This document shows positions 24,462 to 42,415 of a DNA stretch of 64,000 nt, in pieces. The stretch comes from a candidate division WOR-3 bacterium (GTDB lineage: Bacteria; Hydrothermota; Tepidihabitantia; Tepidihabitantales; Tepidihabitantaceae). Numbering within the stretch: the stretch's first letter is position 1; each line of letters starts with the position of its first letter. Location: positions 10,748 to 74,747 of the forward strand of contig CBFGKH010000011.1 of assembly GCA_965649295.1 (NCBI GenBank), written 5' to 3'. The notes beneath the pieces are model-generated. The model had not been told where the DNA came from, ran no database searches, and saw only the letters and a list, made by a program, of their open reading frames with translations. Position numbers and translations under genes: made by a program.

Positions 24462-25922
24462 ATGACTATCCTGCTACTCTGTGTTGCTCTCTGGTCACGG
24501 CCGGCTTTGGTGCCCGTAACCGAACAGGACCTTGACCGGGCAGACCGAATTCAGACTGATTTGGCCTTGACCGACGATGCTCCGCGACTCGCTGCTAGCG
24601 GTCAAGTGCCGGGCAGGTTTGTGGTCGGATTCGAGCGCAAGGAGGTCATTGCCGATATCGTTGGTTTGATCCGGCGCATTGACGAAGCCGGGAGGTTTGC
24701 CGTAGTTGACATCGGCGACGACCCAAAGGCCGAGGCAGCGTTGCTGAGCCTGAAGAACCGGCCGGGAATTCGCTACGTCGAGCCGGATTATGAGGTGCGG
24801 GCTGCGGGCCTGCCCAATGACCCACTGTTCCTCGGATATCAATGGGACAAGTGGGTGATGTATGCTGACCAGGCTTGGGATATTACGACCGGTCAGGCCA
24901 CTGTGAAGGTTGCCATCGTTGACAACGGTTCTGATTACCAGCACGTTGACCTGCAGCCGAACTTTCGCGCTGGCCAGTATGGCCGCGATTTCATCGACGG
25001 TGACGACGACCCGCGACCGGTCAATACCAGTCAGCCGGCGTCATTCCACGGTACGCACGTTGCCGGCATCGTCGGCGCAGCAATCAACAACAATACCGGA
25101 ATCGCCGGTTGGGCCCAGTGTCAGCTTGTGGCGGTGCGGGTGCTCAATGACTCGGGCTCTGGTCTAACATCAGACCTTGCTTCGGGAATCCGCTGGGCTG
25201 CCGACAATGGCTGTCGGATAATCAACATGAGTCTGACCGCCGCTTCGGCGCCGACCGATGTGGTCGAAGCCTGCCAGTATGCTGCGAGCAGGGGTTGTTT
25301 GCTTGTGGCGGCGTCTGGTAATGATGGGGCAGCCAATATTGGGTATCCGGCCGGACTGGCGACAGTCATTGCGGTTGGCGCAATTGATCAGAACTCAGGC
25401 CGGGCCTCATACTCAAACTACGGGCCTGGTCAGGAGCTGGTTGCCTGCGGAACCTACATCCATTCGACTGTGCCGGGTAATCTCTATATGGAATTGAGTG
25501 GGACCTCGATGGCCACGCCCCAGGTTTCGGGCATTGCGGCGCTGATGATGAGCGTTGACCAAAACCTGAGCGCAGGCCGGGTACGGGCGCTACTCGCAGC
25601 AGCGGCGATTGATATGGGAACAGAAGGTCGTGACCAGTTCTATGGCTACGGCCTGGTCAATGCGCGGCGCGCAGTTGAGCTTGCGGCGATGGACCGGCAA
25701 CGTGGGTTTGGTCGTCTGTTTCCCAGGGTGACTGGAACTACAATCATCAGTCGTGAGTTCCGGTTGCCTCCGTGGGTGGAGCAGGTGACTGCATTTGACC
25801 CGAGCGGCCGCGGCCGCAGGTTGGTTGTCCAGTCCGGCACTGTTTCGCTTTGGCCCGGAGTCTGGTTTGCCCGACTCGAAGGCAAGGGGCGGGTCGAGAC
25901 CAAGCGGCTGGTCGTGCGCTAG
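24462..25922 (+). CDS. Secreted S8 subtilisin-like serine protease with degenerate C-terminal sorting-like domain
   Basis: VAIVDNG (Asp), HGTHVAG (His), AASGN and SGTSMATP (Ser). Confidence 0.92.
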   Translation: MTILLLCVALWSRPALVPVTEQDLDRADRIQTDLALTDDAPRLAASGQVPGRFVVGFERKEVIADIVGLIRRIDEAGRFAVVDIGDDPKAEAALLSLKNRPGIRYVEPDYEVRAAGLPNDPLFLGYQWDKWVMYADQAWDITTGQATVKVAIVDNGSDYQHVDLQPNFRAGQYGRDFIDGDDDPRPVNTSQPASFHGTHVAGIVGAAINNNTGIAGWAQCQLVAVRVLNDSGSGLTSDLASGIRWAADNGCRIINMSLTAASAPTDVVEACQYAASRGCLLVAASGNDGAANIGYPAGLATVIAVGAIDQNSGRASYSNYGPGQELVACGTYIHSTVPGNLYMELSGTSMATPQVSGIAALMMSVDQNLSAGRVRALLAAAAIDMGTEGRDQFYGYGLVNARRAVELAAMDRQRGFGRLFPRVTGTTIISREFRLPPWVEQVTAFDPSGRGRRLVVQSGTVSLWPGVWFARLEGKGRVETKRLVVR

Positions 25923-26931: not shown

Positions 26932-26969
26932 ATAGCGAAAGCGGCAGCAAGTGCTGCCGCTTTCGCTAG
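26932..26969 (-). terminator. Long perfect hairpin after the release-factor-like gene
   Basis: TAGCGAAAGCGGCAGCA-AG-TGCTGCCGCTTTCGCTA. Confidence 0.7.
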
Positions 26970-26985: not shown

Positions 26986-28125
26986 CTAGAAGCGCAGGAA
27001 AGCGCCGAGTCCGCCGTTGCGGGCGAGTTCTTCGCCGGGTGGGCCCTTGATTACCTCGACGGGAACGTTGTAGTTCAGCACCAATCGGGGTAGGGCTGCG
27101 GTAAGCGCTGACTTGTTTAGTTCATCGGCGCTACAACGCGGACAGGTACGGCCGTCAGCCGGAGCGACGTAGTTGCACTTCCGGCATTCGCTCATGGTTC
27201 GCTCGAAGTCGCGGGCGATGAGCAGGCGAGCAGCCCGGCCTTCCTGAATCAGTTTGACTACTGGCTCAACACCGACTGCTGCTTTGTTGGAGATTGAGGC
27301 GGCGTCGAGCAGTTCAGTGACAATGCGGGCCTGGCGGTCGGTCTCCCATTCAACAATCTTGGGGTAGATTCTCTTGACCGCGTCAGCCGGACTGGAGAAA
27401 GTCTCAAGCGGGACCTGCGTGACGACTGCTGCGGCCAGGCTTGGGTTGAGGGACCGGGCAAACTCGGGCAGCAGCGACTTGTTGCCGGCAAGAACCAGCC
27501 GCTTGACATGGTAGCGGTCGAGGAGCTCGGCCAGTGGCTTCTGAATCGAACGCCAGAATGCCTGAAGCCGTTCCATGTAGCGAGCGTTGAAGGCGTTGGT
27601 GTCGGCCCGACCACGGGGTTTGCCTCGGCCGCTGCCACCGGCAGCGATAGTTGGCTTGCGCCAGTCGTTGGTGTCAATCTCGATGCTGAACTCGCGGTAT
27701 TCCTCGAACTCGTTCATCCGGACCGCGAGGAAACGAACGTGCTGGCGGTCAACGATGAGGACGCCATAGGGTCGGTATTCTTCGAGCAGCCAGAGTAGCT
27801 GGCTGACGTCAGGGCGGCCCCAGTGGAGTTCGTCACGCACCGGCACACGGGAGACGAACTGCTGCCAGGAGTTGCGGGTAGCGTACGCCAGAAACGAGTT
27901 GCCCTGGGGCTGATATTGCTTCAGGAAGTTTTCAACTCGGGCAACCGCGGCGGTGAATGCGCGGCGGTCCTGGCTCGGCACGGTTGGGTCAATTCGCCGG
28001 ACGAGGTTCTTGAACCGCGTCAGCCAGGCGCTCCGCTGGTCATTGGGGCCAGTGTTGAAATAGAGCGTCAGGCACTGCTTCTCTGGGCTCTGGGCGAGTT
28101 GACGTACAGTGTCAGGTGGGATCAT
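26986..28125 (-). CDS. Bacterial archaeo-eukaryotic release factor-like protein (baeRF, eRF1 domain 3, Zn ribbon)
   Basis: LTLYFN N-terminus, P.VSQLL.LLEEY...GVLIVDR, LVLAG, AAVG...V...G.A..LL, CRKC..CPRC and C-terminal GGLGAFLRF. Confidence 0.8.
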   Translation of the reverse strand: MIPPDTVRQLAQSPEKQCLTLYFNTGPNDQRSAWLTRFKNLVRRIDPTVPSQDRRAFTAAVARVENFLKQYQPQGNSFLAYATRNSWQQFVSRVPVRDELHWGRPDVSQLLWLLEEYRPYGVLIVDRQHVRFLAVRMNEFEEYREFSIEIDTNDWRKPTIAAGGSGRGKPRGRADTNAFNARYMERLQAFWRSIQKPLAELLDRYHVKRLVLAGNKSLLPEFARSLNPSLAAAVVTQVPLETFSSPADAVKRIYPKIVEWETDRQARIVTELLDAASISNKAAVGVEPVVKLIQEGRAARLLIARDFERTMSECRKCNYVAPADGRTCPRCSADELNKSALTAALPRLVLNYNVPVEVIKGPPGEELARNGGLGAFLRF

Positions 28126-28277
28126 TGGTGCTCCTTGTGATTCAAGCAGCTTGTTGGGTTATGGTAGCAGGGGAGCGGCCAAAGTCAAATGCAGCCGGCC
28201 CGGATACTGGTTATGCGGCTGGGGTTGACAGCCCAAACGGGGATTCTAGAATCTGTCACAGCTTCGCGGCTCGGTCA

Positions 28278-29450
28278 ATGTTGTTCACACTTCTGATTGT
28301 TCTGCTGTGCATCGGGTTCGGCGTAGCAGAATACAGCCTGCATCGGCGACGGCTGATGGCCATACCGGTGCGCATCCAGGTTAACGGTACTCGGGGAAAG
28401 TCTTCAGTAACGCGCTTGATAGCTGCCGGTTTGCGGGCAAGTGGCCGACGGGTCGTCGCCAAAGTGACGGGCACTAAGCCGCGGTTCATTATTAGCGATA
28501 CCGAAGAGCATCCGGTGCGGCGGCTGGGCAAGGCGAACATCAGCGAGGAGATGCGAATCGTGCGGCTGGCTTGGGAGCGACGAGCCGAGGCACTGGTGAT
28601 TGAGTGTATGGCCTTGGTGCCGCATTATCAGGAACTGGAACGGCGCATGCTCATCCGGCCAACCCACGGTGTCATCACTAATGTGCGGGCTGACCATCTC
28701 GATGTGATGGGGCCGACCGTGACTGATGTCGGCAAGGCGTTGGCTAACACGATCCCTGACAAAGGAATGTTTTTCACTGCCGAGCGCGGGCCGCTACAGG
28801 CTGTGTTGCGGGAGCGGGTGCCGGCCGGTACCAAGATGATTGTCAGTGACCCGGCCACGGTGAGCGATGAGGAGATGCAGGGCTTTTCCTACATTGAACA
28901 TAAGGAGAATGTTGCGTTAGCCCTGGCTGTTTGTGAGAGTTTCGGTATTGACCGGGCAACGGCTTTGGCTGGAATGAAGCGAACTCGACCCGACTCGGGA
29001 GTTATGCGCATCATCCGGGTAGAGGACCGCGGCAAGGTGATTGAGCTCGTGAATACTTTGGCAGCCAACGACCCGGATTCGATCCGGATGCTCTGGCAGA
29101 TGATGGTTAGTCGGGCGAGCGATCGGATAGTACTGGTGAACTGTCGGCGTGATCGCCTGGACCGGTCGCGGCAACTGGCCGAACTGGTTGCGGGCTGGGA
29201 CTGTCGGGTAATCGTGGCGACCGGCGGACTGCCGAGGGTGTTTATCCAGCGCGGTCGCGAGTTGGGCATTCCGGCAGCCAAGCTCGTTGACCTTGGTGAT
29301 GAGCGGCCGCCAGCCGAAGTTTATGAGCGGGTTCACGAACTAGCCGGCAATCAGACCATGGTCTTTGCTACTGGTAACACAGTTGGGTATGGTGACAGCC
29401 TGATCGCTTTTTTCGAACAGCGTTCGCAAACAGGGAGTACTAACCGGTGA
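28278..29450 (+). CDS. pgsB: Poly-gamma-glutamate synthase PgsB/CapB
   Basis: Start reassigned to MLFTLL (28278); N-terminal TM, VNGTRGKSSVTRLIAAGL, AKVTGT, ECMAL, TNVRADHLDVMGPT, AAND and NCRRDR.DRS. Confidence 0.93.
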   Translation: MLFTLLIVLLCIGFGVAEYSLHRRRLMAIPVRIQVNGTRGKSSVTRLIAAGLRASGRRVVAKVTGTKPRFIISDTEEHPVRRLGKANISEEMRIVRLAWERRAEALVIECMALVPHYQELERRMLIRPTHGVITNVRADHLDVMGPTVTDVGKALANTIPDKGMFFTAERGPLQAVLRERVPAGTKMIVSDPATVSDEEMQGFSYIEHKENVALALAVCESFGIDRATALAGMKRTRPDSGVMRIIRVEDRGKVIELVNTLAANDPDSIRMLWQMMVSRASDRIVLVNCRRDRLDRSRQLAELVAGWDCRVIVATGGLPRVFIQRGRELGIPAAKLVDLGDERPPAEVYERVHELAGNQTMVFATGNTVGYGDSLIAFFEQRSQTGSTNR

Positions 29451-29890
29451 TTGTTGAAGCGATTGGTCTAGGAATGGTTGCGTCTTTTGCTCTCACTGAG
29501 ACGGTCGGCCTGGCGGCTGGTGGTATCGTTGTGCCCGGGTACTTTGCCTTGACCCTGACCGAACCGGTGCGAGTGGTGGTGACTCTGCTGGTTGCGCTTG
29601 GAGTACTGGTTGTTCTGAAGATATTGGACCGTTATACTTTACTCTTTGGACGCCGTTTGCTGCTTATCAGCGTGCTCGTCGGTTACCTGCTTGGCTACGC
29701 TACTAAAACGGTCCAACCGGTGAGCTTCAACGGGGCTCATTTCGAGCTGAGTGTTATCGGTTATGCAATTCCTGGGCTGGTAGCCTACTGGATGCATCGG
29801 CAGGGAGTTATTGAGACCGTGGCGACGATGTTCATCGCTGCGGTGCTAACGCGGCTGGTGATAACCGTGATTTCGGGCGGAGCGTTCTGA
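29447..29890 (+). CDS. pgsC: Poly-gamma-glutamate biosynthesis membrane protein PgsC/CapC
   Basis: G..AGGIVVPGY.AL, LFGRR and IG.AIPGL.A.W..RQG; hydrophobic; GTGA overlap with pgsB. Confidence 0.93.
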   Translation: MIVEAIGLGMVASFALTETVGLAAGGIVVPGYFALTLTEPVRVVVTLLVALGVLVVLKILDRYTLLFGRRLLLISVLVGYLLGYATKTVQPVSFNGAHFELSVIGYAIPGLVAYWMHRQGVIETVATMFIAAVLTRLVITVISGGAF

Positions 29891-30984
29891 TGCGACGCCG
29901 GCAGGGACGGGTTAATCGCTGGGTGCTGGTAGGACTAGCCTTGATAGCACTCGCTTCTTTCTACGTTGTCACCCGAACCACGCGGACGATTCGCAGCCGA
30001 GGTTTTGAGGCCAAACAGACAGCGGCGCGACTGGCAGCTCAGGCGCTGAAGGCAGTCGGTCAGTATCGGCAGCAACTCGGTGTGCCGGTTGATAGCGTCA
30101 ACGATCCGAACGGGACCGGTCTCATTGGTCTGCAGTTCAGCCAGCTAACTTACGGGCGCAGCGACTTGAGTGCGGCTTTGACTACGACTAACCCGAACGT
30201 TGCCGCAGCCTTGGTGGAGATGCTGTTGCGGGCTGGGGCAAGGGCTGGGGACACGGTCGGCGTAAGCTGGGACGGAACCTATCCGGCGCTGAACATTGAG
30301 TTTTTGGCAGCCTGCCAAGCCCTGCGACTAGTGCCAGTGATTGTGACCGCGCAAAGCGCGGGGATGTGGGGAGCCAACTACCCCGGGCTTTCATGGCTTG
30401 ATATCGAGCGACTGCTGGTGCGTCAGGGTATTTGGAACTATCGTAGTCAACTGGCCACGCTTGGCGGTGAGGATGACAATGGTCGCGGACTTTCACCTGA
30501 AGGTAGAGACTTGCTGGCAATTGCCGCTGAGTCGGCAGGTGTGCGGTTGGTTGAACCGGAGTCGCTGGCCGATGGCGTGGCCTTGCGAACCGCTGTCTAT
30601 TGCCGACCGCGGGTTTTTGTTTCGCTCGGCCGGGCGGTTGTTGATATCGGCGATCCGCTGGCCAGGGTACCATCGGGACTGATCAGCGGTCGGCTGCGGC
30701 GCGACCGATATCAGGGCTTGATTGGCCGAATGCGGCAGCAGAACGTGCCGGTTATTCACATCGCCAACCCCAATCGGATTGCTCTTGACTACCGGCTGCC
30801 GATAGCGCCGGTGCCGTTGCCAGAGCCGGGGCGAGGCCGGTTGTTCTTTGAGCGTCGCTATTCAGTGCCACTGGCCGCGGCTTTTGCTCTGCTATTGGCG
30901 GTGTTGCTCTTTCTGGTTGTGCGCTACGACATTGAATCATATTTCGGCGTGAAGCGCGAGCCGACAGAGAAGGAGGCAGTTTGA
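29890..30984 (+). CDS. pgsW: Poly-gamma-glutamate system protein (PgsW-like)
   Basis: DPNGTGLIG..FS.LT, TTTNPN.AA, G.YPALN, MWGAN, LGG..D.G motifs; N- and C-terminal TM; TGATG coupling to pgsC. Confidence 0.8.
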   Translation: MRRRQGRVNRWVLVGLALIALASFYVVTRTTRTIRSRGFEAKQTAARLAAQALKAVGQYRQQLGVPVDSVNDPNGTGLIGLQFSQLTYGRSDLSAALTTTNPNVAAALVEMLLRAGARAGDTVGVSWDGTYPALNIEFLAACQALRLVPVIVTAQSAGMWGANYPGLSWLDIERLLVRQGIWNYRSQLATLGGEDDNGRGLSPEGRDLLAIAAESAGVRLVEPESLADGVALRTAVYCRPRVFVSLGRAVVDIGDPLARVPSGLISGRLRRDRYQGLIGRMRQQNVPVIHIANPNRIALDYRLPIAPVPLPEPGRGRLFFERRYSVPLAAAFALLLAVLLFLVVRYDIESYFGVKREPTEKEAV

Positions 30985-31913
30985 GAATAGTGCGAGGAGA
31001 GAGGTGTGGAGTGCAGTGTGGTCGTTGTCTCGCAATCATCGACGGCAAAAAGCTTTGGGGTAGCTGTCTAGTTGTCCTGGTGCTAATGGTGAGTGGTGCA
31101 ATAGCTCTGCCGGTGCAGGTGGCAGGTGATGCTAGGACTGTCAATATCAGCATCGTTCGGCGGGTCGAGGTGCCATACTACGTCATAACCAAGGCTCGGC
31201 CACTTGAGTTTGAAGCTACTGGACCAGCCTGGCTGCGAATCTACACTCGGGCGTGGTGGCCGCAGGGCAAGACCGGCGATATTCACATCAAGCTGGCGTT
31301 GTGGCAGGACGATGTTGAGCGACCGATCCAGTTTGATATGCCAGCCTCAAGTTCGAGCTTTGGCCCGGGTCGGCGGCCGCTCAGTGCCTGGCGTTCGTTC
31401 TTTATCCAAGTTCCGGCCGGCGCGAATCGGTATCGGTTGGCACTCGAAGAAGGGCCAACCGATACGGTTGGCGTGAGGATTGTCGAGCAGCAGCCCAGGG
31501 CCTGGGAAGAAGTGCCAATCAGCGATGGCCAGGCTTTGACCCTGATAGAAGGAGCTGATACGAGCCGTTTCTTTGCGATTGCCAAAGGCATACCGCAGCC
31601 AGTCGCGATTGACGGACCCTGCCGGGTACGAGTGCGGGTCCGACTTGGATTTGAGCCAAGCATGGACGGAGCGCAGAGCTTTGTGCTGACGGTGTCGCAG
31701 CGTGGACGTCAGTTGGCGCGACGCAGTTTCCGGACGACACGGTCATTGGCAGCGGCGTTTCGTGAGCGGCCAGGAGTTGTGCCAGCGGTGGAGCGTACCT
31801 TGCAGTTCAATCTGTCCGAGGGTAGGCAGCAGCTTGAGCTGCTGCTTTCCGGTACGCTCGCACGCACCGCCGGCGTCCGAGTTGAGCGGTTGACTGGTGA
31901 AAAGTATGAGTAG
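30981..31913 (+). CDS. Exported hypothetical protein with two similar beta-rich domains
   Basis: Hydrophobic signal-like segment; internal repeat PLEFEATGPAWLRIYTR / PQPVAIDGPCRVRVRVR; exact start uncertain. Confidence 0.6.
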   Translation: MRIVRGERCGVQCGRCLAIIDGKKLWGSCLVVLVLMVSGAIALPVQVAGDARTVNISIVRRVEVPYYVITKARPLEFEATGPAWLRIYTRAWWPQGKTGDIHIKLALWQDDVERPIQFDMPASSSSFGPGRRPLSAWRSFFIQVPAGANRYRLALEEGPTDTVGVRIVEQQPRAWEEVPISDGQALTLIEGADTSRFFAIAKGIPQPVAIDGPCRVRVRVRLGFEPSMDGAQSFVLTVSQRGRQLARRSFRTTRSLAAAFRERPGVVPAVERTLQFNLSEGRQQLELLLSGTLARTAGVRVERLTGEKYE

Positions 31914-31916
31914 CCG

Positions 31917-32957
31917 ATGAACTGGACCATAGCCACCAGCGATCGCGTCGGTAATGCTGTCGTTCTAACGTGGCTAGTAGTGGCTGTCCTCTTTTCGGCT
32001 ACGCCGGCAGTCGAGCTATCGTGGCAGGCGCAGCTCGGCGCAACCTACGATGACAACCTTTTCTGCTACTCAGCCACTGATATTGATCGGTTTGAGCGGC
32101 GGGTTGCGCCAGAGCAATTCCCGATTCAGACTATTGACGACGTTGACCTGAATACGGTCTTCGTACTCACGGCCCGCTACCGTCTTCAGTCGCGCGCCGG
32201 TTCGGTTCGGGTCAGAACCACCGTTCATCACTACGTGGCGAACACGCCGAAGAGTTATTCGCTCGGCGAGGTTGGTGTTAGGCAGGAGTTCTGGCGCGAC
32301 GGTGTGGTGAATCTGGAGTATCGCTATCTGCCCAACTACTTGCTGCGCTTCTATCGGCGACGGGACGGCATGGCGAGTGACTATGCAGCCTGCCGTTTTG
32401 CCGAGCACCTTGCTCGGATTCGTTTGCGGCAGCGGTTGGGTCGGTTTGCCGTTGTTCCGTCATACGGGTTCGAGATTGATGATTACGTGGCAGTTTTCGA
32501 TTACTACGATACGAGAGCACACCGACCGGCATTGGGTCTGGAGTGGGAGGTGTCCTGGGGAGTTGTCTTTTCGGCTGGTTATGAGCTGAAGTTGGCTCGG
32601 GCAGCAGGGCCGATTCCAGATATCTCCTATCGGCAGCACGAGGGTCGGCTAGAGCTTGAGTATCGGCCCTGGCAGCTCCGACGGTTGAGCGTGGCGACCG
32701 AGTTTACGCTGGCCAAGCGTCAATTCACGACGAAAGAGGTTGCGATAGACCCGGCGCACGCCGGTCGAACCGACCTGATTGGTGGCGTTGGCGTAGAAGT
32801 AAGGTATCGAATCGGACAGGCAGCAGTTGTTGCTGCTTATCAATATGAGAATCGCTCGACCGACTCACCTAACAAAGCAACGGTTGAAGAGATCAAGCAG
32901 TATGCGGCCAACCGTTTCAGTCTAGGCGTAGTGGTTGAGTCGCGAAAGGTGAACTAG
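31917..32957 (+). CDS. Predicted outer-membrane beta-barrel protein
   Basis: Signal peptide, N-terminal YDDNLF, many alternating hydrophobic/aromatic strands and a terminal NRFSLGVVV strand. Confidence 0.6.
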   Translation: MNWTIATSDRVGNAVVLTWLVVAVLFSATPAVELSWQAQLGATYDDNLFCYSATDIDRFERRVAPEQFPIQTIDDVDLNTVFVLTARYRLQSRAGSVRVRTTVHHYVANTPKSYSLGEVGVRQEFWRDGVVNLEYRYLPNYLLRFYRRRDGMASDYAACRFAEHLARIRLRQRLGRFAVVPSYGFEIDDYVAVFDYYDTRAHRPALGLEWEVSWGVVFSAGYELKLARAAGPIPDISYRQHEGRLELEYRPWQLRRLSVATEFTLAKRQFTTKEVAIDPAHAGRTDLIGGVGVEVRYRIGQAAVVAAYQYENRSTDSPNKATVEEIKQYAANRFSLGVVVESRKVN

Positions 32958-32960
32958 AAT

Positions 32961-34178
32961 ATGAGGCGTCGCTTGGTCTGGTTTGTGGTGCTCGCTGTGG
33001 TTTTGAGATGCCATCGGCCCTTGCCGTTGCCAGCGAATGTTGAACTGGTAGCGCCAGCAGATGGAGCGGTAGTGCGGCGGACAATGCTTCTGCTCCAGTG
33101 GCGGACAACAGAGCCGCAATCGCAGGTCCAGGTGAGTACGAGCAGCCGTTTCACGACCATGCTGTTCGATACTTTGGTCACTGACGAGTCGGTGCAGGTC
33201 AGACTTCCGACTGACGGCAGCTACTTCTGGCGGGTGCGGCCCGTGTCGGCTGACAGCGTTAGGGGGGAGTGGTCGGACGCGCGGAGCCTGCGGCTGGAGC
33301 GCTTTCGAATTCTTACTAGTGTACGAACTCAGGGTTATCCGCACGATGTGGCGGTTGTCGGCAATCGGGCGTATGTCGCCGACGGCGAGGCCGGGCTGGC
33401 AGTTTTTGATGTCAGCAACCCGGAGCTGCCAGTGTTGCTGGGAAGTAAGCTTGATTCGTTGAACGTGGCTTGGGGAGTGGCTGCCCGCGATAGTCTTGCC
33501 TATATTGCCTATGGCTACAAGGAGTTGATGATTGTCAATGCCGCTCGACCTGAGAGCATGGTGACGCTCGGAGTGCTCGAGTATCCGCAGCCCGGAACCG
33601 GCTATGACGTTGCCCTGGCTGATTCATTTGCTTTTGTCGCAGCCGGTGCCCAGTTCCTCAAGGTTGGCATCAGTGATCCGCGTTACCCCAATCTTGTGTA
33701 TCAAGGATACTACCCACGCGACTGCTACGGTGTGAGCATAGTTGGCCCAGTTGCTTGCGTTGCGCTTGGTCAGCTGGGAATGGCCTGCTGGCGTATTGAT
33801 ACTGTTCCACCGATGCAAGTTGGCTGGCTCGATACTCAGGGCAAGGCACGGGCGATCGCGGCAGCCGGCCGATTTGCCTTTGTCGCAGATGGGCTGAACG
33901 GCTTGGTAGTTGTTGATATCTCGAATCCGACGCAACCAAGCTTTGTTGCCAAGTTGGCGCTCAAAGGCTATGCCAATGGGGTAGCGGTTCAGGATACACT
34001 TGTCTATGTTACTTGTGGAGCCGGGGGCATTGCTGTGGTCAATATTGCTGACCGAGCAAGGCCGCAGCTCGTCACCCAGTTGCCAGGCGGCTACGCAATG
34101 GGCGTCTGTCCCGCTGGTCAGTACGTTTTTGCGGGCGACCGTGACTTTGGTCTGGTCGTTCTCAAGCAGGAGGAATAG
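32961..34178 (+). CDS. LVIVD-repeat beta-propeller protein with N-terminal FN3/Ig-like domain (probable lipoprotein)
   Basis: Basic/hydrophobic N-terminus ending in Cys; YFWRVR; repeats AYVADGEAGLAVFDVSNP and AFVADGLNGLVVVDISNP. Confidence 0.8.
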   Translation: MRRRLVWFVVLAVVLRCHRPLPLPANVELVAPADGAVVRRTMLLLQWRTTEPQSQVQVSTSSRFTTMLFDTLVTDESVQVRLPTDGSYFWRVRPVSADSVRGEWSDARSLRLERFRILTSVRTQGYPHDVAVVGNRAYVADGEAGLAVFDVSNPELPVLLGSKLDSLNVAWGVAARDSLAYIAYGYKELMIVNAARPESMVTLGVLEYPQPGTGYDVALADSFAFVAAGAQFLKVGISDPRYPNLVYQGYYPRDCYGVSIVGPVACVALGQLGMACWRIDTVPPMQVGWLDTQGKARAIAAAGRFAFVADGLNGLVVVDISNPTQPSFVAKLALKGYANGVAVQDTLVYVTCGAGGIAVVNIADRARPQLVTQLPGGYAMGVCPAGQYVFAGDRDFGLVVLKQEE

Positions 34179-37100
34179 TTGCGTTTTCTGCTCATTGTAC
34201 TTGCCGGATTTGCCGTAGCCCACGCTGGGGTTAGCATAGCCTCAGGCCCGCGTCAACTCGAGCTTACCTACGACTTCGCGGTTGAGGATGAGTCGGTGAC
34301 TGCATTGGCCCAGCTTGTGCCCGTTTGCCAAGGGCAGCTGCCTCTGGTGTTAGCGAGCGATGGTGCGCCTGAGTTCGGTTCGATCGTTAGAGCAGCTGGA
34401 CTGGAGCTTGTGCCGCTTGTCGTAAAGAGAGAACAGACGGACCGCAGCCAGATGGTTGTCAAGCTGAACTATCCGACCGGGCTAGAGCCGCCGGCACGGC
34501 TGAATGCTATGGGACGTTTCATGGCTAGACGCTGCGGTTTGCCGACGACTGGCCATGCCGATGCTGATGTTTATCTGATTGTTGTACCGGATGAGTTCTA
34601 TAGTAATGTTCTGCCACTGGCAGCCTGGAAAGAGCGGATGGGATATCGGGTGCTGGTACGACGGACCTCGCAGATTGGCGGCACGCGTGATCAGATTCGT
34701 GCTTACATCCAGCGACTCTATCAGCAGCCTGATTCGATGCCCAGCTTCGTCTTGTTGGTGGGTGCGGTCAACAAGATACCGGCCTTTGTCAATGTCGGGA
34801 CACCCTGTGTTACTGACCATCCGTATGCCTGCGTTGACGGCAACGACTTTCTGGCTGACCTTTTTGTTGGTCGGTTTCCGGCAGCCAATGCTTCGGAGCT
34901 GGATGTGATGGTTGCGAAGACGGTTGGGTACGAGTCATCGCCGCTGCTGACCGATACTTCGTGGTATCGGCGGGCATTGATGGTCGGGACATCCTATCAG
35001 GAAGGCGGCACACCGGCGGTGACTGCACTGGTGACCAAACGGCTGATTCGCGAGCGCATGCTCGGCCACGGATTTGTCCAGATAGACACGGTTTTCTATC
35101 CGCCAACAGCTGGCGGCCGGGGAACAGTTGACACAGCCGTGAACCGTGGCGTGCTTTTTGTTAACGGTCGGGGCTGGGGTAACTACGAGGGCTGGCGTTA
35201 TCCTTCGTTTCTCATTAGCGATGTTGCCGCGTTGCGCAATGGTTGGAAGTTGCCGGTGGTTACGAGCATCTACTGTGGTACGGGCAACTATCAGGCCAAC
35301 CCGTGTTTCGGCGAGATGTGGTTGCGAGCCGGGGTGCCGACTGATCCGCGAGGCGGAGTCGCTTTTTGGGGCAGTTCATACACCGGGACATCCACCCGTT
35401 GGAACAACAGTATGGACTACGGGATCTACGAGGAAATCTTCAACCGGGGCGAGCACGGGTGTGGGGCAGCAATGTACGCTGGCAAGCTGACACAGTATGA
35501 GAATTTCCCACTGCCTGAGGACTCAGTTGAGCTGCGCAATTACTTCCATGTCTATAATCTGCTCGGTGACCCGGCGTTGCGGATGTGGACCGGCGTACCG
35601 CGGCCCCTTGCGGTCAGTTACAATTCGTGGGTGCACGAGGGGTCAAGCTTGTTTGAGGTGACGGTGCGTGACAATCATGGTCAGCCGGTGCCGAACGCCC
35701 TTGTCTGTCTTTCGCGTACCCCAGAGGTCCACGCGGTCACTGTTACAGACAACTGGGGTACAGCTCGGTTTCGCCTGGCGCCGACGGGGCCGGGCGCAAT
35801 CCTTGTTACTGTGACTGGCGACAACTTGGCAACTCACCTCGGGCAGATTGTTGTGGGACAGTCTGAGATATTCGTTGGCTACAATACGCACCAGCCGACA
35901 GCAGTTGGGCCTGGCCAGAATGTTGTTCTTGATGTGACCGTCCGTAATTTCGGTGTGAGCCAGACTGCGACCGGTGTTTCGGCAGTGTTACGCTCTGCAA
36001 GCAGTGCGGCGATTGTGACTGACTCGGTATGTGCACTTGGCGACATCGGACCAGGAGCCGTCAGTACGGCAAGCTTTGGGGTTCGGACAGTACCGTCATG
36101 TGTTGGCGGACAGCGCCTGCCGATGGTGTTGGTGACAAGGTCTGCTCAGGGAGAGTGGTATTCAGGATTTGACCTGGTGGTTGACGGGCCGATGCTCGAG
36201 TACCGACGCTATGCGGTGCACGACGCGAATGGCTGGCTTGACCCGGGTGAGGCAGCTGAACTGTCGGTTGTGGTACGTAATCACGGCAGCGCTGCTGCTG
36301 GGCTTGTTGCAGTCCTGAGATCGCTCAATCCTCAGGCAGTCACAGTGCTTGACTCATTCGGCACTTTCGGTGACCTGGCCCCAGGCGAATCGGCGTCGAA
36401 CGGGACCGATCGATTTCGTGTCCAAGCGGCTGCTGGGATTGGTGTTGGTCGGCAGTTTTCATTACGGCTCGTGCTGCGATGCACGGGCGGGTTCGAGCAG
36501 TACTGGGACTTCGTTCTGACCGTGGGGCAGCCAGTGACGAGTGCACCGCTTGGGCCGGATCGGCATGGCTACTATGCCTACGACGACACCGACGTAGGTT
36601 ATCCGGAACGGCCGAGTTACGACTGGGTTGAGATTGACCCGAACTTCGGTGGCAGTGGCAGCAGACTGAGCGTTGGCAACGATACCTGTGTTCCGGTCAG
36701 CTTGCCATTTGTGTTTCGTTTCTATGGCCGCGATTACAGCGTCGTATCAGTGAGCGATAATGGGTTCATCGCGCCTGGCACGCAGTGGATAGGCGATATT
36801 TACAACTGGCGCATTCCATCGCCTTCTGGCACAGATGGTGTGATTGCGCCGTTCTGGGATGATTTCCGAACGGACACGCTAGGTGCGTCCGGTGTCTACA
36901 CCTGGCACGATGTCGCGAATCATCGGTTCATCATCGAATGGAGCCGGTGCGTTCACGTGCATGGTTACCGACCGCCCTATCTGGGTGAACAGCAGACATT
37001 CCAACTGCACCTCTGTGACCCAGCGTTCCACGCGACACCGACTGGTGACGGTCCGATTCTTTTTCAATACCATACGGTGTTCAATGACGACACTCTGTTC

Positions 37101-37550
37101 GAGAACAATCACAACTTCGCGACGGTCGGCATCGAGTCGCCGGACAATGCTTTTGGCCTAGAGTACACCTATGCCAATTCCTACCCGGCTGCGGCAGCGC
37201 CGGTTGTCGCGGGACGGGCGATTCGTCTCACAACAGTGGCACCGGACACATTTGTGGCGATTCATGAGACCAATCCAGTCCGACGAAGTGAGGCATTGCA
37301 AGTTCGGCCGCAACCAGCACGCAAGCGAGTGAAGATTGTGCTGCCTTATGTTCATGGGGAGATACTGGCGGTGTTTGATATTGGCGGCCGGCTAGTACGG
37401 CGAATTCGATTGGAGAGGGACGCCGGTGTTGCCGAGTGGGACTTGCGTGATAACGTCGGGCAGCGAGTTCCGGCCGGTATCTACAATGTGGCTTTGACTT
37501 CTGTTGCTGGGCGGGGTACGATTTCTTGTCTCATTCGAGTACTTGACTAG
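34179..37550 (+). CDS. C25 (gingipain-family) protein with C-terminal FlgD/T9SS-like domain; catalytic His position is Trp
   Basis: YLIVVP, LAAWKERMG, FVLLVG, DHPY, DLFVGRF, NGRGWG, SIYC, YNLLGDP; GPD.HGYYAYD; CTD DIGGRLV...WDLRD..G..VPAGIY. Confidence 0.85.
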   Translation: MRFLLIVLAGFAVAHAGVSIASGPRQLELTYDFAVEDESVTALAQLVPVCQGQLPLVLASDGAPEFGSIVRAAGLELVPLVVKREQTDRSQMVVKLNYPTGLEPPARLNAMGRFMARRCGLPTTGHADADVYLIVVPDEFYSNVLPLAAWKERMGYRVLVRRTSQIGGTRDQIRAYIQRLYQQPDSMPSFVLLVGAVNKIPAFVNVGTPCVTDHPYACVDGNDFLADLFVGRFPAANASELDVMVAKTVGYESSPLLTDTSWYRRALMVGTSYQEGGTPAVTALVTKRLIRERMLGHGFVQIDTVFYPPTAGGRGTVDTAVNRGVLFVNGRGWGNYEGWRYPSFLISDVAALRNGWKLPVVTSIYCGTGNYQANPCFGEMWLRAGVPTDPRGGVAFWGSSYTGTSTRWNNSMDYGIYEEIFNRGEHGCGAAMYAGKLTQYENFPLPEDSVELRNYFHVYNLLGDPALRMWTGVPRPLAVSYNSWVHEGSSLFEVTVRDNHGQPVPNALVCLSRTPEVHAVTVTDNWGTARFRLAPTGPGAILVTVTGDNLATHLGQIVVGQSEIFVGYNTHQPTAVGPGQNVVLDVTVRNFGVSQTATGVSAVLRSASSAAIVTDSVCALGDIGPGAVSTASFGVRTVPSCVGGQRLPMVLVTRSAQGEWYSGFDLVVDGPMLEYRRYAVHDANGWLDPGEAAELSVVVRNHGSAAAGLVAVLRSLNPQAVTVLDSFGTFGDLAPGESASNGTDRFRVQAAAGIGVGRQFSLRLVLRCTGGFEQYWDFVLTVGQPVTSAPLGPDRHGYYAYDDTDVGYPERPSYDWVEIDPNFGGSGSRLSVGNDTCVPVSLPFVFRFYGRDYSVVSVSDNGFIAPGTQWIGDIYNWRIPSPSGTDGVIAPFWDDFRTDTLGASGVYTWHDVANHRFIIEWSRCVHVHGYRPPYLGEQQTFQLHLCDPAFHATPTGDGPILFQYHTVFNDDTLFENNHNFATVGIESPDNAFGLEYTYANSYPAAAAPVVAGRAIRLTTVAPDTFVAIHETNPVRRSEALQVRPQPARKRVKIVLPYVHGEILAVFDIGGRLVRRIRLERDAGVAEWDLRDNVGQRVPAGIYNVALTSVAGRGTISCLIRVLD

Positions 37551-37565
37551 CTGTAAGGAGAAAGC

Positions 37566-38843
37566 GTGAGCAGACGATGTTTGGTCTTGTTAGTTGCGCT
37601 GGTTTGTTCTGGAAGCGCTACAGCGTTGATCTATCATGGCGTGGCGTTGGCACCGGACGGTCAGAACGGTTGGGTGGTGACAATTGAGACGACGGCAGTA
37701 TATCACACGACAGACGGCGGTGCCAGTTGGGAGCCACAGAACGTACCGACCGTGAGAGATTTCTTTGATGTGTTCTTTCTTGACGGGCTTTCCGGTTGGA
37801 CTTGCGGCCGAATCGGTGACATCTGGCATACGACAAACGGTGGCAATGACTGGTATCGGCAGAATCTTGGTGGTCCCAAGTTTGCAACGCGAATGCAGTT
37901 CATTGATGAGAACTTCGGTTGGGCTGCTGGCGGTGAGGCAATCCTGATGCATTCGACTAACGGTGGCTCAGAGTGGCAGCTTGAGTTTTTCCCCAACCCA
38001 CCCTACCCGTCGTCAATTGTTGACTTTCAGGGCCTGTCGCTGCTCGGACCTAACAACGGTTGGCTGGTTGCCGGCCGCTATCCGGAAGGCGACTCTTTCT
38101 GGGGCGGTCAAGGTTACATTGTCCACGTGCGAGCCGATGCTGATTCTTTCATCAAGAACTTAGTCAGGCTCGACACGATATACGATTTCTTCGGCGTTGA
38201 CTTCGTGAATGAACAGACCGGTTGGGTTGTGGGTGGTTATGACCGCAACATGCGAGCAGTGGTTCTCCACACGACCGATGGCGGTGCGAACTGGACAGAG
38301 CAGTCGTTGCCGGCCTCAGCCAAGTATCTGCGGGCGGTTGACTTCGTTGACGCCGAGAACGGGTGGGCTTGTGGCCGCCATGGAACGATTATCCGTACAA
38401 GTGACGGCGGGGCAACCTGGGTGGCCCAGTATTGTCCGGCAGACACAACTCTTTTTGATATCCAATTTGTTGACGCGACGCGAGGTCTGTGTGCGGGGAA
38501 CTCGCTTGTGCTGTACACAACTGATGGCGGCGAGCATTGGATTAGGAGTATGGGCGGTGTAGCAGAGCAGGTTGGACCATCCTTGCCGAGCGAAGGTCCG
38601 TTGATTGCCGTTACTCGTTCGCCGGCGCGGGGCAGAGTTGAGTTGCGTTTTGCCGGCGCGGGGCAGATTGCGATTCACAATCCGGCCGGCAGACTCGTTC
38701 GGAAGATCAGCGGCGATAACTGTGTGGTCTGGGATGGGCGTGATGATTACGGTAGGCCGGTAGAGAATGGTCTGTATGTAGCGCGGCTGACGACCACCGC
38801 TGTCGCGGCCGCGACAACTAGGTTTGTTTACCTGAAAGAGTAG
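37566..38843 (+). CDS. YCF48/BNR-repeat beta-propeller protein with FlgD/T9SS-like C-terminal domain
   Basis: Signal peptide; multiple HTTDGG.(S/N/T)W repeats; CTD GRLVR...WDGRD..G..V.NGLY. Confidence 0.85.
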   Translation: MSRRCLVLLVALVCSGSATALIYHGVALAPDGQNGWVVTIETTAVYHTTDGGASWEPQNVPTVRDFFDVFFLDGLSGWTCGRIGDIWHTTNGGNDWYRQNLGGPKFATRMQFIDENFGWAAGGEAILMHSTNGGSEWQLEFFPNPPYPSSIVDFQGLSLLGPNNGWLVAGRYPEGDSFWGGQGYIVHVRADADSFIKNLVRLDTIYDFFGVDFVNEQTGWVVGGYDRNMRAVVLHTTDGGANWTEQSLPASAKYLRAVDFVDAENGWACGRHGTIIRTSDGGATWVAQYCPADTTLFDIQFVDATRGLCAGNSLVLYTTDGGEHWIRSMGGVAEQVGPSLPSEGPLIAVTRSPARGRVELRFAGAGQIAIHNPAGRLVRKISGDNCVVWDGRDDYGRPVENGLYVARLTTTAVAAATTRFVYLKE

Positions 38844-38853
38844 GGACGCACAA

Positions 38854-41800
38854 GTGAAGAAGAGAACACTGGCAGTTGTTCTGCTGCTGCTGGCAGCATA
38901 CACGCTTGGCATGGCTGAGCGGGGGGCCAAGTATTTGATCATTGCCGCGGACGCATTCACCGATATTGTTCAGCCGCTGGCGCAATGGCGAACTAAGAAG
39001 GGTTTACTGGCTAAGGTTGTGTCGGTTTCGCAGGCTGGAGGTAGTGCCAGTGCCATCCAGTCGTACATCAGGAATGCTTACAACACTTGGCCGGTGCGAC
39101 CAGAGTTCGTCGTGCTTGTTGGCGGCCCAGCTCAGGTCCCGCCTTACAATTCTTCAACCGACTGTCCGTACGGTGACATGACCGGTGATTACCTAATGGA
39201 GATATCGGTCGGTCGGTTGTATGCAACCACGGCCCGCGAATGCAGTCTGCAAGTGAATAAGGTGCTCGCATATGAGAAGCCGGTTTGGACTGGCGATACT
39301 CTTTGGTTCCTGCGAGGTACTACTTGTGTGCGTGAGGACAACTCAGCTGACGACACGATCTACTGGAACGATACTCGGCTTGCGCATAGCTACTGGGTGG
39401 ACCGCGGTTATGTGGCGATCGATTCGTTCAGCTCGAATAGGGGCAATAATAGCGCGCAGGTGAACGCGGCCTGCAGTGAAGGCCGCACCTTCGTGACCTA
39501 CCGAGGGCAAGGAGTGTCAACTTGGTGGTCGCCATTTAGCTCGATCACGCCATCGAGTTGGACAAACGGTGCGAGGATGCCGATTGCGGTCGGCGCGACC
39601 TGTGCGACAATGTCTCTTTCTCCGGGAGAGTCGATGTATGGAGACCAGTTCGTTCGTGCCGGCACGCCAAACGGACTGGGGGGCGCGATTGCCTACTTTG
39701 GTACGACCGGAGTAATCTCGCGCGGTGCTTTCTACCGTAGCGCAGTCTTCCGCGGGTTTTTTACGGCGCTGTTCGGGGAGAAGAACGCATGGCTGGGGCC
39801 AGCCACTGTTCGGGGGCGCTATCGAGTTGATTCACTTTACCGCGTCCAGGCTCGGTATCAGGAGTGGAATCTGTTTGGTGACCCGGGACTTTTGGTTTGG
39901 ACCGGCCGACCAATGCACCCACAAATTAGCTACGACTCGGTCATTCCACTTGGACCGCAGACGTACAATGTAGTGGTGAGGGGCAATGGAACGCCGGTGC
40001 AGGACGCGCTCGTCTGCTTGATGATGGACACAACTGTTTATGCTACCGCCTTGACTAATGGCGCGGGTGAGGCGCAGTTGTCAATTAACCCGCCGGTTGT
40101 GGGTACACTCTATCTAACAATCACTGGTGCTAATCTACTGCCGTTTGAGACAACTGTAAGGACGATCGTTTCGGGCGAGCCCTATCTTGTTTCAGGTGGT
40201 CTTGAAATTGACGATTTCGGTGGCAACAACGATCAGGTTGCGAACCCGGGCGAGAGACTCCGGTTGCGTGTGGGCCTCCGGAACTTGGGGACAGTGACTG
40301 CGACAGGCGTGACTGCAGTGCTGCGGATGAATCAGTCTGGCGTGACCGTTCTTGACAGCACGGCGACATACGGCACGGTGCCGGCTGAGAGTGTAGTCTT
40401 CGGTGAGAGTTTCGAACTCGTCCTCGACACGGTTCTCACCGAGGGGCAGACTTTTGCAGGTACAGTGGTGGCAAGGGACAGCGTGGGCCGAAGTTGGAAC
40501 TGCTCAGTTTTGCTCGTTGTTCACGCTGGCCGGATTGTCTTCAGTGGTGTGACCTTACTTGACGCGCCGCCGGGCGGCAACAACAATGGTCGTTTGGGGC
40601 GAGGCGAGAGTGGCCGGCTCGAACTAGCCATCACCAACAGTGGTGGTGCTGGGCTTGGGTCGGTGCGGGCGGTTGTCCGTTGTCTCAATCCGGATGTTGT
40701 TCTCACTGACTCCACCAGCTGGTATGGTACACTCAGCGCTGGCGGCTCAGCGTCTGGTGCTCAGGATCGGCTAGCGTTACAGGCTCCTCTCAATCTGGCG
40801 CGAAACCAGCCGGTGACATTTCGTGCGTTTGTCTGGGCCGATGGCGGCACCTACCATCACTGGGATACCCTTGAGTTCCAGGTGCAAGGTGAACAGGGAG
40901 TTACAAGCGATCCGACTGGGCCAGATGCTTATGGCTACTGGTGTTATGACAACACCGATATCGAAACCGGGCAGGCACCGACCTATAGCTGGTTCGACAT
41001 CTCTAGCATTGGGACGGTGATTCCGGCCGTGTCGGATTCAGATGCGGCCACACGGGCCCTGACTATGCCATTCACCTTCCGGTACTACGGCCGCGCCGGC
41101 ACGACAATGTCAGCCTGTTCGAATGGTTGGCTCTGTTTCGGTACAACAACTTCACGCCGGGGTACCAACAATCCGATGCCAGACACCGGTAGTGCGGCTG
41201 CAATGATTGCGCCGTTTTGGGATGACCTCAATCCCGATGAGAACAACAATGGCTATGGCACAGCCTATCAGTACTACGACGTAGCCAACCACCGTTGGAT
41301 TGTTCAGTATCAGGATTTCGCGCACATTAATCAACCCAACATCCGCGAGACATTTCAGGCCATTTTCTATGACCCGGCCTATCACCCGACGCCGACCGGC
41401 GACGGTGAGATTGTGTTTCAGTACAACCGGGTCTCACTAAATTCCAGTTGTACGGTTGGTATTGAGGATTCTACAGAGACGATTGGTCTGCAATACCTTT
41501 ACAACAACAGTTATGCACCGACGGCTGCCTATCTGCAGGCTGGCCGGGCTCTCAAGTTCACGACCCATCCGCCAAGCAGCCTGACTCTACCATGGCTTGT
41601 GCTGAGCGGTGTCACAGTCAGCGATGCCTTATACGGAAACAACAACGGCGTTGCCGAACCTAATGAGTTGCTGACAGTAGTGGTTGATATCAGAAACTCA
41701 GGTGCCGGTGCAGCGAGTAACATCTCAGCACTGCTGCGGGCAATGGACAGCGAGGGGACGGTGGTTGATTCCGCCGCCCAGCTTGGTGACATCGCTGCCA

Positions 41801-42252
41801 ACGGCCAAGCTGCAAATATTGCCGAACCGTTTACCTACCGGGTCGCGGCGCTGCCGGGTGATTCAGTAGCTGAGCTTGGGGTGGTGCTGAGCGGCAACGG
41901 TTACAGTGGTATTGCCTACTTCTCATTCGGTCTAGGAGTACCGATGGGAGTGACGGTGTCACCGGAGCAGCTCGGTCCCGGCGCCGGACTTACGGCAATC
42001 TGGCCGAATCCAGCCGTACGGGCCGTTCGAGTAAATTACGGTCTCAGGAGAGCAGCGACTGTTGAGCTCGGTCTGTTTGATGCTACCGGGCGGCGCGTCT
42101 TGGAATTGGTTAACGGCCAGCAGCCCGCTGGTCAGTACGGGCTGCTGGTGCCGATTGATGGACTGAGTCAGGGGGTCTATTTCTGCCGGCTCGTTGTGAC
42201 CGATCGTGCGGGAAGTCAAGAGTTCGTTCGTAAGTTGCAGGTGGCAAGGTAG
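38854..42252 (+). CDS. Second C25 (gingipain-family) protein with T9SS-like C-terminal domain; catalytic His position is Gln
   Basis: Signal peptide; YLIIAA, LAQWRTKKG, FVVLVG, SVGRL, TYRGQG, GATC, WNLFGDP; GPDAYGYWCYD; CTD WPNP...DATGRRV...GVYFCRL. Confidence 0.85.
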   Translation: MKKRTLAVVLLLLAAYTLGMAERGAKYLIIAADAFTDIVQPLAQWRTKKGLLAKVVSVSQAGGSASAIQSYIRNAYNTWPVRPEFVVLVGGPAQVPPYNSSTDCPYGDMTGDYLMEISVGRLYATTARECSLQVNKVLAYEKPVWTGDTLWFLRGTTCVREDNSADDTIYWNDTRLAHSYWVDRGYVAIDSFSSNRGNNSAQVNAACSEGRTFVTYRGQGVSTWWSPFSSITPSSWTNGARMPIAVGATCATMSLSPGESMYGDQFVRAGTPNGLGGAIAYFGTTGVISRGAFYRSAVFRGFFTALFGEKNAWLGPATVRGRYRVDSLYRVQARYQEWNLFGDPGLLVWTGRPMHPQISYDSVIPLGPQTYNVVVRGNGTPVQDALVCLMMDTTVYATALTNGAGEAQLSINPPVVGTLYLTITGANLLPFETTVRTIVSGEPYLVSGGLEIDDFGGNNDQVANPGERLRLRVGLRNLGTVTATGVTAVLRMNQSGVTVLDSTATYGTVPAESVVFGESFELVLDTVLTEGQTFAGTVVARDSVGRSWNCSVLLVVHAGRIVFSGVTLLDAPPGGNNNGRLGRGESGRLELAITNSGGAGLGSVRAVVRCLNPDVVLTDSTSWYGTLSAGGSASGAQDRLALQAPLNLARNQPVTFRAFVWADGGTYHHWDTLEFQVQGEQGVTSDPTGPDAYGYWCYDNTDIETGQAPTYSWFDISSIGTVIPAVSDSDAATRALTMPFTFRYYGRAGTTMSACSNGWLCFGTTTSRRGTNNPMPDTGSAAAMIAPFWDDLNPDENNNGYGTAYQYYDVANHRWIVQYQDFAHINQPNIRETFQAIFYDPAYHPTPTGDGEIVFQYNRVSLNSSCTVGIEDSTETIGLQYLYNNSYAPTAAYLQAGRALKFTTHPPSSLTLPWLVLSGVTVSDALYGNNNGVAEPNELLTVVVDIRNSGAGAASNISALLRAMDSEGTVVDSAAQLGDIAANGQAANIAEPFTYRVAALPGDSVAELGVVLSGNGYSGIAYFSFGLGVPMGVTVSPEQLGPGAGLTAIWPNPAVRAVRVNYGLRRAATVELGLFDATGRRVLELVNGQQPAGQYGLLVPIDGLSQGVYFCRLVVTDRAGSQEFVRKLQVAR

Positions 42253-42341
42253 GTCTGGAGTTGTTTTGCTCTCTGCCGCCACCGATGGTGGGGGCAGGAC
42301 CTTGACTCGTTCGGAGAAGGCAGTATTATCACAGCCCAAAG

Positions 42342-42415
42342 GCCCCAGTAGCTCAGAAGGATAGAGCGGCGGTTTCCTAAACCGCAGGTCGAGCGTTCGA
42401 ATCGCTCCTGGGGTA
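42342..42415 (+). tRNA. tRNA-Arg (anticodon CCT), CCA not encoded
   Basis: GCCCCAG/CTGGGGT acceptor stem, TAGCTCAG D-arm, GCGGT-TTCCTAA-ACCGC anticodon arm, GTTCGAATC T-loop; TTGACT-16-TATTAT promoter upstream. Confidence 0.95.

Follow-up and report, generated by a model that had tools for sequence, protein, structure and literature searches.

A conserved poly-gamma-glutamate operon in a WOR-3 bacterium with a predicted outer-membrane barrel and gingipain-fold proteins that lack the catalytic histidine

We analyzed a 64,000-nucleotide stretch of a candidate division WOR-3 (Hydrothermota) genome, hereafter the window (assembly GCA_965649295.1, contig CBFGKH010000011.1, positions 10,748 to 74,747), in which nine co-oriented genes begin with those of a poly-gamma-glutamate (PGA) synthase (Table 1). 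The nine open reading frames (ORFs) are separated by -4, -1, -4, +3, +3, 0, +15 and +10 nt. An initial annotation made from the sequence alone had proposed this tight array, a TTGACA-16-TAGAAT promoter upstream of it and the families pgsB, pgsC, pgsW, LVIVD, C25 (twice) and YCF48. The array and the promoter-like site are found as proposed, and the families are matched by Pfam or NCBIfam models. Adjacent PgsB/CapB and PgsC/CapC genes, which PGA synthase systems require, are present by the NCBIfam cut-offs, while the fourth and fifth genes, for an exported protein that we call X4 and a barrel, have zero Pfam or NCBIfam model matches. This is a conserved, real system and a variant of the PGA capsule and exopolymer systems. 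Its new part, and also the most surprising one, is a group of PGA-linked C25 proteins without the catalytic His.

Table 1. Genes and predicted signals of the PGA operon (positions in the window)
Feature	Position	Strand	Basis
promoter-like site, sigma70 type, TTGACA-16-TAGAAT	28225..28252	+	11/12 match, predicted
pgsB/capB, poly-gamma-glutamate synthase ATPase subunit	28278..29450	+	TIGR04012 392 bits (cut-off 223)
pgsC/capC membrane subunit	29447..29890	+	TIGR04011 114 bits (cut-off 96), PF14102
pgsW	29890..30984	+	TIGR04332 237 bits (cut-off 100)
X4, exported basic tandem jelly-roll (CBM35-like) protein, putative periplasmic polymer guide	30981..31913	+	ortholog model
14-stranded outer-membrane beta-barrel, putative polymer exit channel	31917..32957	+	ortholog model
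LVIVD beta-propeller lipoprotein	32961..34178	+	PF08309
C25a, gingipain-fold protein with C-terminal domain (CTD)-like tail	34179..37550	+	PF01364
YCF48/BNR propeller with CTD-like tail	37566..38843	+	PF14870
C25b, second His-less C25 with type IX secretion system (T9SS) type A CTD	38854..42252	+	PF01364, TIGR04183
hairpin without U-tract, 3' of last gene	42272..42297	+	z -2.2

Catalysis in the gingipain RgpB relies on a His/Cys dyad, and Asp163 anchors the P1 Arg (PMC4357240). The PF01364 domain scores 217 and 160 bits in the two operon proteins, and C25a aligns with RgpB (4ief) over 365 residues (E 9e-29), with Cys244 of RgpB placed on Cys366. At the position of the catalytic His211, C25a carries Trp333, preceded by Arg331, and keeps Cys366 (codon 35274-35276); C25b carries Gln219, preceded by Arg217, and keeps Cys250 (codon 39601-39603). 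The dyad of peptidase C25 is incomplete in both, with the Cys kept and the His replaced. Asp163 of RgpB falls on an Ala of C25a, an approximate placement given by a pairwise alignment beside a gap. The motif at the His position is R-G/S/A/V-x in every pgs-operon C25 examined. Across the His-less rows of our alignment the Arg and the Cys are invariant and His is absent (133/133), the His column holding Trp in 49 rows, Gln in 26, Gly in 25, Tyr in 12 and others in the rest; 15 further rows keep His. No substitute catalytic His is conserved across the His-less rows (best columns 0.39-0.49), and C25b has no second conserved Cys able to pair with the invariant one. Searching a 1.84-billion library with the C25a core profile gave 584 clusters (E<=1e-30); in the top 150 matches Arg and Cys are present in 151/151 stretches and His in one protein. 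The literature that we searched, most subscription papers being out of reach, held nothing on His-less C25s, no link of a barrel or a C25 to pgs genes and no description of this operon.

One explanation for the missing His is that these C25s are non-catalytic pseudo-peptidases which, once attached to the surface by T9SS, bind PGA through contacts between Arg and carboxylates. The residue in the His column is unconstrained, as would be expected of a dead site, and the CTD tails would offer a ready surface anchor through PorU-like proteins encoded elsewhere in the genome. Such decay sits poorly with a nucleophile Cys that is invariant in all 133 rows and, in C25b, has no conserved partner Cys, and we consider this explanation quite unlikely but still a serious rival.

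The linkage to pgsW is specific to the His-less kind of C25. While some C25 is found in 151/151 genomes of the host phylum, the C25a type occurs in 51 and the C25b type in 46, all of them pgsW-positive, when cut-offs are placed between His-less and His-bearing scores. Together the His-less types are present in 53/61 pgsW-positive genomes versus 0/90 pgsW-negative ones, and 34 of the 51 genomes with a C25a type had no row in the profile. When 80 of the 90 pgsW-negative genomes were searched again at a looser cut, no match exceeded 129 bits, and GHG is retained in each of the 30 top loci. Six families (f1, f10, f13, f20, f21 and f24) are mixed for pgsW, and in these pgsW and C25a occur in the same genomes. 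For Fidelibacterota (n=111), 37 genomes have pgsW and equally many have the C25a type, the two coinciding in 33; the 4 with C25a only comprise 2 with pgsB and 2 with contigs ending in the cluster, and another 4 have pgsW without a C25a type. For Bacteroidota (n=301), in a search that scored 11 candidates per genome, 8 genomes have pgsW and 3 have the C25a type, each time next to pgsW on the same contig.

It is conceivable that a large paralog family supplied the C25 and propeller genes as hitch-hikers unrelated to PGA. The host genome does have 16 C25 genes above the cut-off (12 with His and 4 without), and about 100 of its ORFs match our own CTD profile. Nevertheless only the His-less types are linked, and they track pgsW even on other contigs and in three phyla. 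This explanation is largely refuted, and we leave it almost no probability.

The gene order gives a similar picture. Having detected pgsW in 61/151 host-phylum genomes, we retrieved the remaining 60 loci for comparison. A GTDB genome scan contributed the best 80 of 235 confirmed loci, from which 21 host-phylum-like loci were set aside and 59 of other lineages kept (Fidelibacterota, Fibrobacteraceae- and Krumholzibacteriota-titled genomes, Eisenbacteria, Zixibacteria, Ignavibacteria, Bacteroidota, Cloacimonadota, Nitrospirota and others). The profiles were built from the host-phylum loci that they were used to count, and many of these loci end at contig ends. Among the 60 host-phylum loci, X4 is found in 55, the barrel in 52, LVIVD in 37, C25a in 33, YCF48 in 31, C25b in 27 and a peptidase M14 gene in 13. 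X4, the barrel or both are present in 57/60, and pgsW, barrel, LVIVD, C25a, YCF48 and C25b are all together in 27/60. For comparison, of the 59 loci of other lineages 54 contain X4, 42 the barrel and 33 LVIVD; 27 have a His-less C25 (15 of which had contributed profile rows), 2 have YCF48 and 0 have C25b. These counts define a core of pgsBCW-X4, then the barrel, then LVIVD and a C25a-type gene, with YCF48 and C25b as additions of the host phylum. Host-phylum genomes keep this order, which recurs in rearranged form in Fidelibacterota, in Krumholzibacteriota/Fibrobacterota, in Eisenbacteria and in some Bacteroidota. Where operons are split, C25a mostly stays beside LVIVD, or beside YCF48 and C25b, and LVIVD adjoins a His-less C25 even then. 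Co-occurrence of the downstream genes with pgsBCW, for which the initial annotation had suggested a synteny check, thus extends through the host phylum and several others.

Several of the retrieved loci carry further genes. The operon variant of Krumholzibacteriota- and Fibrobacteraceae-titled loci (L125, L146 and related) includes genes for a beta-helix-CTD protein and an HGSNAT-like acyltransferase, has its LVIVD joined to an FGE-sulfatase-like domain and carries a second His-less C25 that is transcribed divergently; this variant suggests PGA decoration. A conserved 1000-aa CTD protein with zero Pfam or PDB matches (L283:10038-13046 and Fidelibacterota orthologs) lies between the His-less C25 and M14 in pgs operons, and the Fidelibacterota His-less C25 at L283:13043-17608 ends in a dockerin-like domain in place of a CTD. 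The Chryseobacterium gleum-titled locus L130 has pgsW and X4 with the ORF lengths and scores of the Flavobacteriales locus L131 and is possibly from a mislabelled bin.

To place the two C25 types, we inferred an IQ-TREE tree of 46 C25 rows (LG+G4), in which C25a types and C25b fall into separate groups with good support. Proteins with Arg-Gly-His, one of them from a pgsW-negative genome, are the sisters of C25b, so the Arg is older than the loss of His. A single clade of all His-less C25s was rejected on the same 46 rows at p-AU 0.025, a marginal result, and pgs-linked lines may have lost the His repeatedly. A FastTree tree covered 139/148 rows, after removal of duplicates (4 loci), truncated rows (3) and short rows. 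One of the Arg-Gly-His sisters of C25b is encoded in the host genome at C3:130724-137401 and is followed by a YCF48-like gene, a possible ancestral arrangement. Two His-less C25b paralogs of about 540 aa lie outside the operon at C9:84032-85675 and C5:127881-129488 and, with C25a and C25b of the operon, make up the 4 His-less C25s of the genome. C25b-type copies in addition to that of the operon thus number 2 in the host genome, and relative G141 has up to 13 matches.

Turning to the synthesis and export genes, PgsW is predicted to hold an alpha/beta domain between two membrane helices (10-29 and 326-345). Its AlphaFold2 model is confident (pLDDT 92.8), and fold searches gave no clear match (Foldseek TM<=0.2; best Z 8.0). 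PgsW, X4 and the barrel are linked by natural fusions: PgsW-X4 at 7 loci of a single lineage group, of which 6 have a third hydrophobic segment where the two parts join, and X4-barrel at 8 host-phylum loci. We built a model on the X4-barrel fusion of one relative (L080, 543 aa), with the X4 and barrel of the window as alignment rows. The model (pLDDT 89.7) consists of two jelly-roll domains and a 14-stranded barrel and, as a fused-ortholog model, bears out the prediction of an outer-membrane barrel for the fifth gene. The barrel of the fusion is closest to CymA (Z 21.0, rmsd 3.7, 265 aligned), followed by OmpG (Z 16.2), PgaA (Z 12.0) and BcsC (Z 11.4), and the X4 N-domain resembles CBM35 (Z 9.5-9.8). 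The barrel also matches Atlas barrel clusters (0.98). X4 is net basic in 43/45 orthologs and PgsW in 42/43, and Cys17 of the LVIVD protein is invariant in 55/55 rows. Taken together, the fused-ortholog model and the synteny put a barrel gene beside the synthase, as in synthase-dependent exopolymer secretion.

The same genes could be read in another way, with the synthase making short gamma-glutamyl chains for protein or lipid modification and the barrel importing or exporting small products. CymA, the nearest fold, is an importer, PgsW has no functional match and no pgsW-type product has been characterized in the literature searched. However, PgsB and PgsC exceed equivalog cut-offs, CapA orthologs travel with the operon, and Cloacimonadota, a phylum of carriers, are described with a three-gene PGA operon and a DAPI-stained matrix (PMC13082233). 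We regard the short-chain explanation as very unlikely.

The host genome (2.28 Mb, 100% complete) encodes LpxC and a T9SS-like system outside Bacteroidota (C9:69699-75297, C6:26550-30449 and C4:38704-44295), in which one of two PorU-like C25s adjoins a PorV-family gene. A SprA match reaches 461 bits (cut-off 200), and six PorV-family genes exceed the cut-off, all outside the operon; a GldN search was uninformative, with no match in any control genome. C25b passes the TIGR04183 type A sorting domain at 26 bits (cut-off 23). The tails of C25a and YCF48 give sub-threshold FlgD_ig matches, and that of C25a scores 72 bits on our CTD profile.

PorU uses the C25 fold for transfer onto A-LPS amines by a Cys/His dyad (PMC10202324), and the initial annotation had compared the operon with PorU, PorV and PorZ. 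Extended to PGA, the comparison would make the C25s PorU-like enzymes conjugating CTD cargo onto the polymer, and the barrel would correspond to PorV and the propeller to PorZ. The C25 fold, CTD cargo and SprA are all there, yet the comparison fails for each gene. The operon C25s score 43.5 and 38.1 bits on the PorU model NF033707 (cut-off 420) and miss the dyad His, whereas two other C25s of the genome reach 371 and 340 bits. The barrel has no NF033709 match as PorV/PorQ and gives a BLAST E of 0.07 against the genome's PorV-family protein. The YCF48 gene has no NF052228 match as PorZ, the best genome match to that model being on another contig (38.8 bits). We find this explanation highly improbable.

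CapA, CapD and M14 proteins bear on the nature of the polymer and on its fate. The initial annotation stated that capA and capD are missing and named copies elsewhere in the genome as the counter-evidence to look for. Both are absent from the operon, and GGT/CapD (PF01019) has 0 matches in the host genome, while 8/14 control genomes match. CapA, on the other hand, is encoded on contig C8 (117374-120325) as a 983-aa secreted PKD-CapA-CTD protein, 44-48% identical to proteins inside the pgs loci L118, L123, L281 and L282 of Bacteroidota/Ignavibacteria-type genomes. Full-length CapA-CTD was found in 16/151 genomes, all pgsW-positive, with 5 candidates scored per genome; CapA has been proposed as a PGA epimerase (PMC8179263). 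An M14-CTD gene ends the operon in many relatives and is found in 34/151 genomes, 32 of them pgsW-positive; the operon-type M14 was not found in the host genome. In the operon M14s the residue just before the conserved D/N-W is Arg in 18 rows (16 genomes) and His in 7 Fidelibacterota rows, while the four unrelated M14s of the host genome have Lys, Thr, Cys and Gln. We take this column to be position 255 in the CPA/CPT numbering. Arg255 confers acidic specificity on M14 (PMC9925722). As read from these sequences, the co-travelling M14 and CapA-CTD point to glutamate.

An acid-specific type of M14 in the operons of relatives also suits a system in which nothing is anchored and the His-less C25s, as PGA endo-hydrolases, release chains or set their length together with M14. 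This would fit the invariant Cys, the expansion of paralogs and the loose PGA-like matrix of Cloacimonadota (PMC13082233), and CapD, which anchors PGA by transpeptidation, also depolymerises it (PMC7759979). On the other side, loss of His would be expected to hamper hydrolysis more than aminolysis, and its repeated loss in pgs-linked lineages, as suggested by the tree (AU p 0.025 versus one clade), would be odd for plain hydrolases. Hydrolysis without anchoring is in our estimate an unlikely but serious alternative.

As for the surroundings of the operon, 17 kb hold 10 promoter-like sites where 6.6 would be expected, so the count alone is weak support, but the site upstream of pgsB is the best of them. 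The hairpin proposed downstream is present and folds at -25.1 kcal/mol, with 6/200 shuffles equal or better, but it has no U-tract and is not among the terminators listed by the scan of the window. Next comes a tRNA-Arg gene (42342-42415), for which a separate promoter-like site lies at 42302. A baeRF10-type gene, release-factor-like or for ribosome hibernation (26986-28125, minus strand), is oriented divergently from the pgs promoter, with a 16-bp hairpin at 26933-26968. Further upstream are genes for a CTD-tagged M14 of the non-operon type (16650-18896) and for an S8 protease whose tail is CTD-like (24462-25922).

The gene combination probably exports a polymer and then cuts or fastens it at the cell surface. 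We consider it likely that three layers form a single PGA system of polymer export and T9SS-secreted polymer-processing enzymes. In the first, PgsB, PgsC and PgsW, assigned by family match, would make PGA at the inner membrane. In the second, the basic CBM-like X4 would guide the anionic polymer through the periplasm towards the 14-stranded barrel, and the LVIVD lipoprotein would serve as an outer-membrane accessory. In the third, CTD-tagged proteins would exit by the T9SS-like route and act on the polymer outside; this set comprises the two His-less C25s and the propeller and, in relatives, the candidate CapA-type epimerase and glutamate-type M14 carboxypeptidase.

By analogy with CapD, we tentatively hypothesize that the His-less C25s transfer and anchor PGA by transpeptidation. 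The invariant Arg would bind a gamma-glutamyl unit by its alpha-carboxylate, and a gamma-glutamyl thioester would form on the invariant Cys. The chain would then pass to an amine on a surface molecule (a lipopolysaccharide sugar, a lipid or the C25 itself) and not to water, because no His activates water. Complement C4A, which is without the His of C4B, likewise reacts with amines. We give the whole explanation, a three-layered PGA system of a two-membrane bacterium with C25 transfer and anchoring, a probability of roughly 45%.

Several observations weigh against transfer and anchoring. Clan CD peptidases, like PorU, depend on a Cys/His dyad (PMC4357240, PMC10202324), and our explanation gives no account of how the Cys is activated without a His, no substitute being conserved. 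C25b copies expand away from the operon (2 extra here, up to 13 in G141), a pattern as compatible with a binding or degrading family as with an anchor, and the M14 partner favors trimming as much as anchoring. The only published observation on a related diderm is of a loose matrix, not an attached capsule (PMC13082233). A His-less C25 is absent from 8/61 pgsW-positive host-phylum genomes, from 4/5 further genomes tested and from 5/8 pgsW-positive Bacteroidota; the C25 module is therefore optional and dispensable. Finally, related genomes are not independent, and the profiles A6 and A7 were trained on pgs-linked genes.

PGA export and retention in two-membrane bacteria are undescribed in the literature searched, though many phyla of sediments and digesters commonly have pgsBC(W) genes, and for each step the locus supplies parts that can be tested. 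A large group of C25s without the clan CD His (the 584 clusters), whose presence follows PGA genes, is also defined by it. If active, these proteins would bring new chemistry to the caspase/gingipain fold and might be polyglutamate ligases; if inactive, they would be a new PGA-binding module. They also offer a lead to the function of part of the large unexplained C25 expansions and link T9SS to exopolymer biology. In the broadest form of our explanation, many diderms would carry a covalently anchored polyglutamate coat, exported through a PgsW-X4-barrel channel and attached by T9SS-secreted clan CD Cys/Arg gamma-glutamyl transferases that lost His more than once. We consider this possible but doubtful; if true, the caspase/gingipain clan would gain a new catalytic type and CapD an unrelated substitute. 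Cultured carriers are probably to be found among Bacteroidota/Ignavibacteria (Marinifilum-titled locus L123).

The operon shares with the Bacillus PgsBCA(E) and CapBCADE systems equivalogs of PgsB and PgsC, a genome-encoded CapA-family protein that is operon-linked in relatives, and a candidate cut-and-transfer enzyme encoded downstream. It differs in having PgsW as third gene and an outer-membrane module, in a CapA that takes the form of a secreted PKD-CapA-CTD protein, and in that GGT/CapD was not found in the host genome. In contrast to CapD, the candidate anchor has a clan CD fold and would act outside the outer membrane, not on peptidoglycan. The diderm pgsBCW triplets (TIGR04332), described in Cloacimonadota (PMC13082233) and in Electryoneota, where CapBC were noted (PMC9324843), have the same three synthesis genes. 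The main-text passages of these two descriptions present a three-gene operon or unnamed transport proteins, with a barrel, gingipain or C25 unmentioned.

The His-less C25s match RgpB at fold level with the catalytic Cys aligned, but His211 is replaced, Asp163 is lost in C25a and an invariant Arg stands two residues before the His position. Like PorU/PorV/PorQ/PorZ of T9SS, where the C25 fold has transpeptidase chemistry (PMC10202324), the operon encodes a set of barrel, propeller and C25; none of its genes matches these families, and the PorU-like and PorV-family genes lie elsewhere in the genome. Finally, an inner-membrane synthase, a periplasmic guide and a monomeric outer-membrane barrel recall synthase-dependent secretion by PgaA, BcsC and AlgE. 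Here, however, the polymer would be a polyamide instead of a polysaccharide, the guide is CBM-like and not TPR, the barrel is nearer to CymA and OmpG, and the modifying enzymes carry T9SS-type tails.

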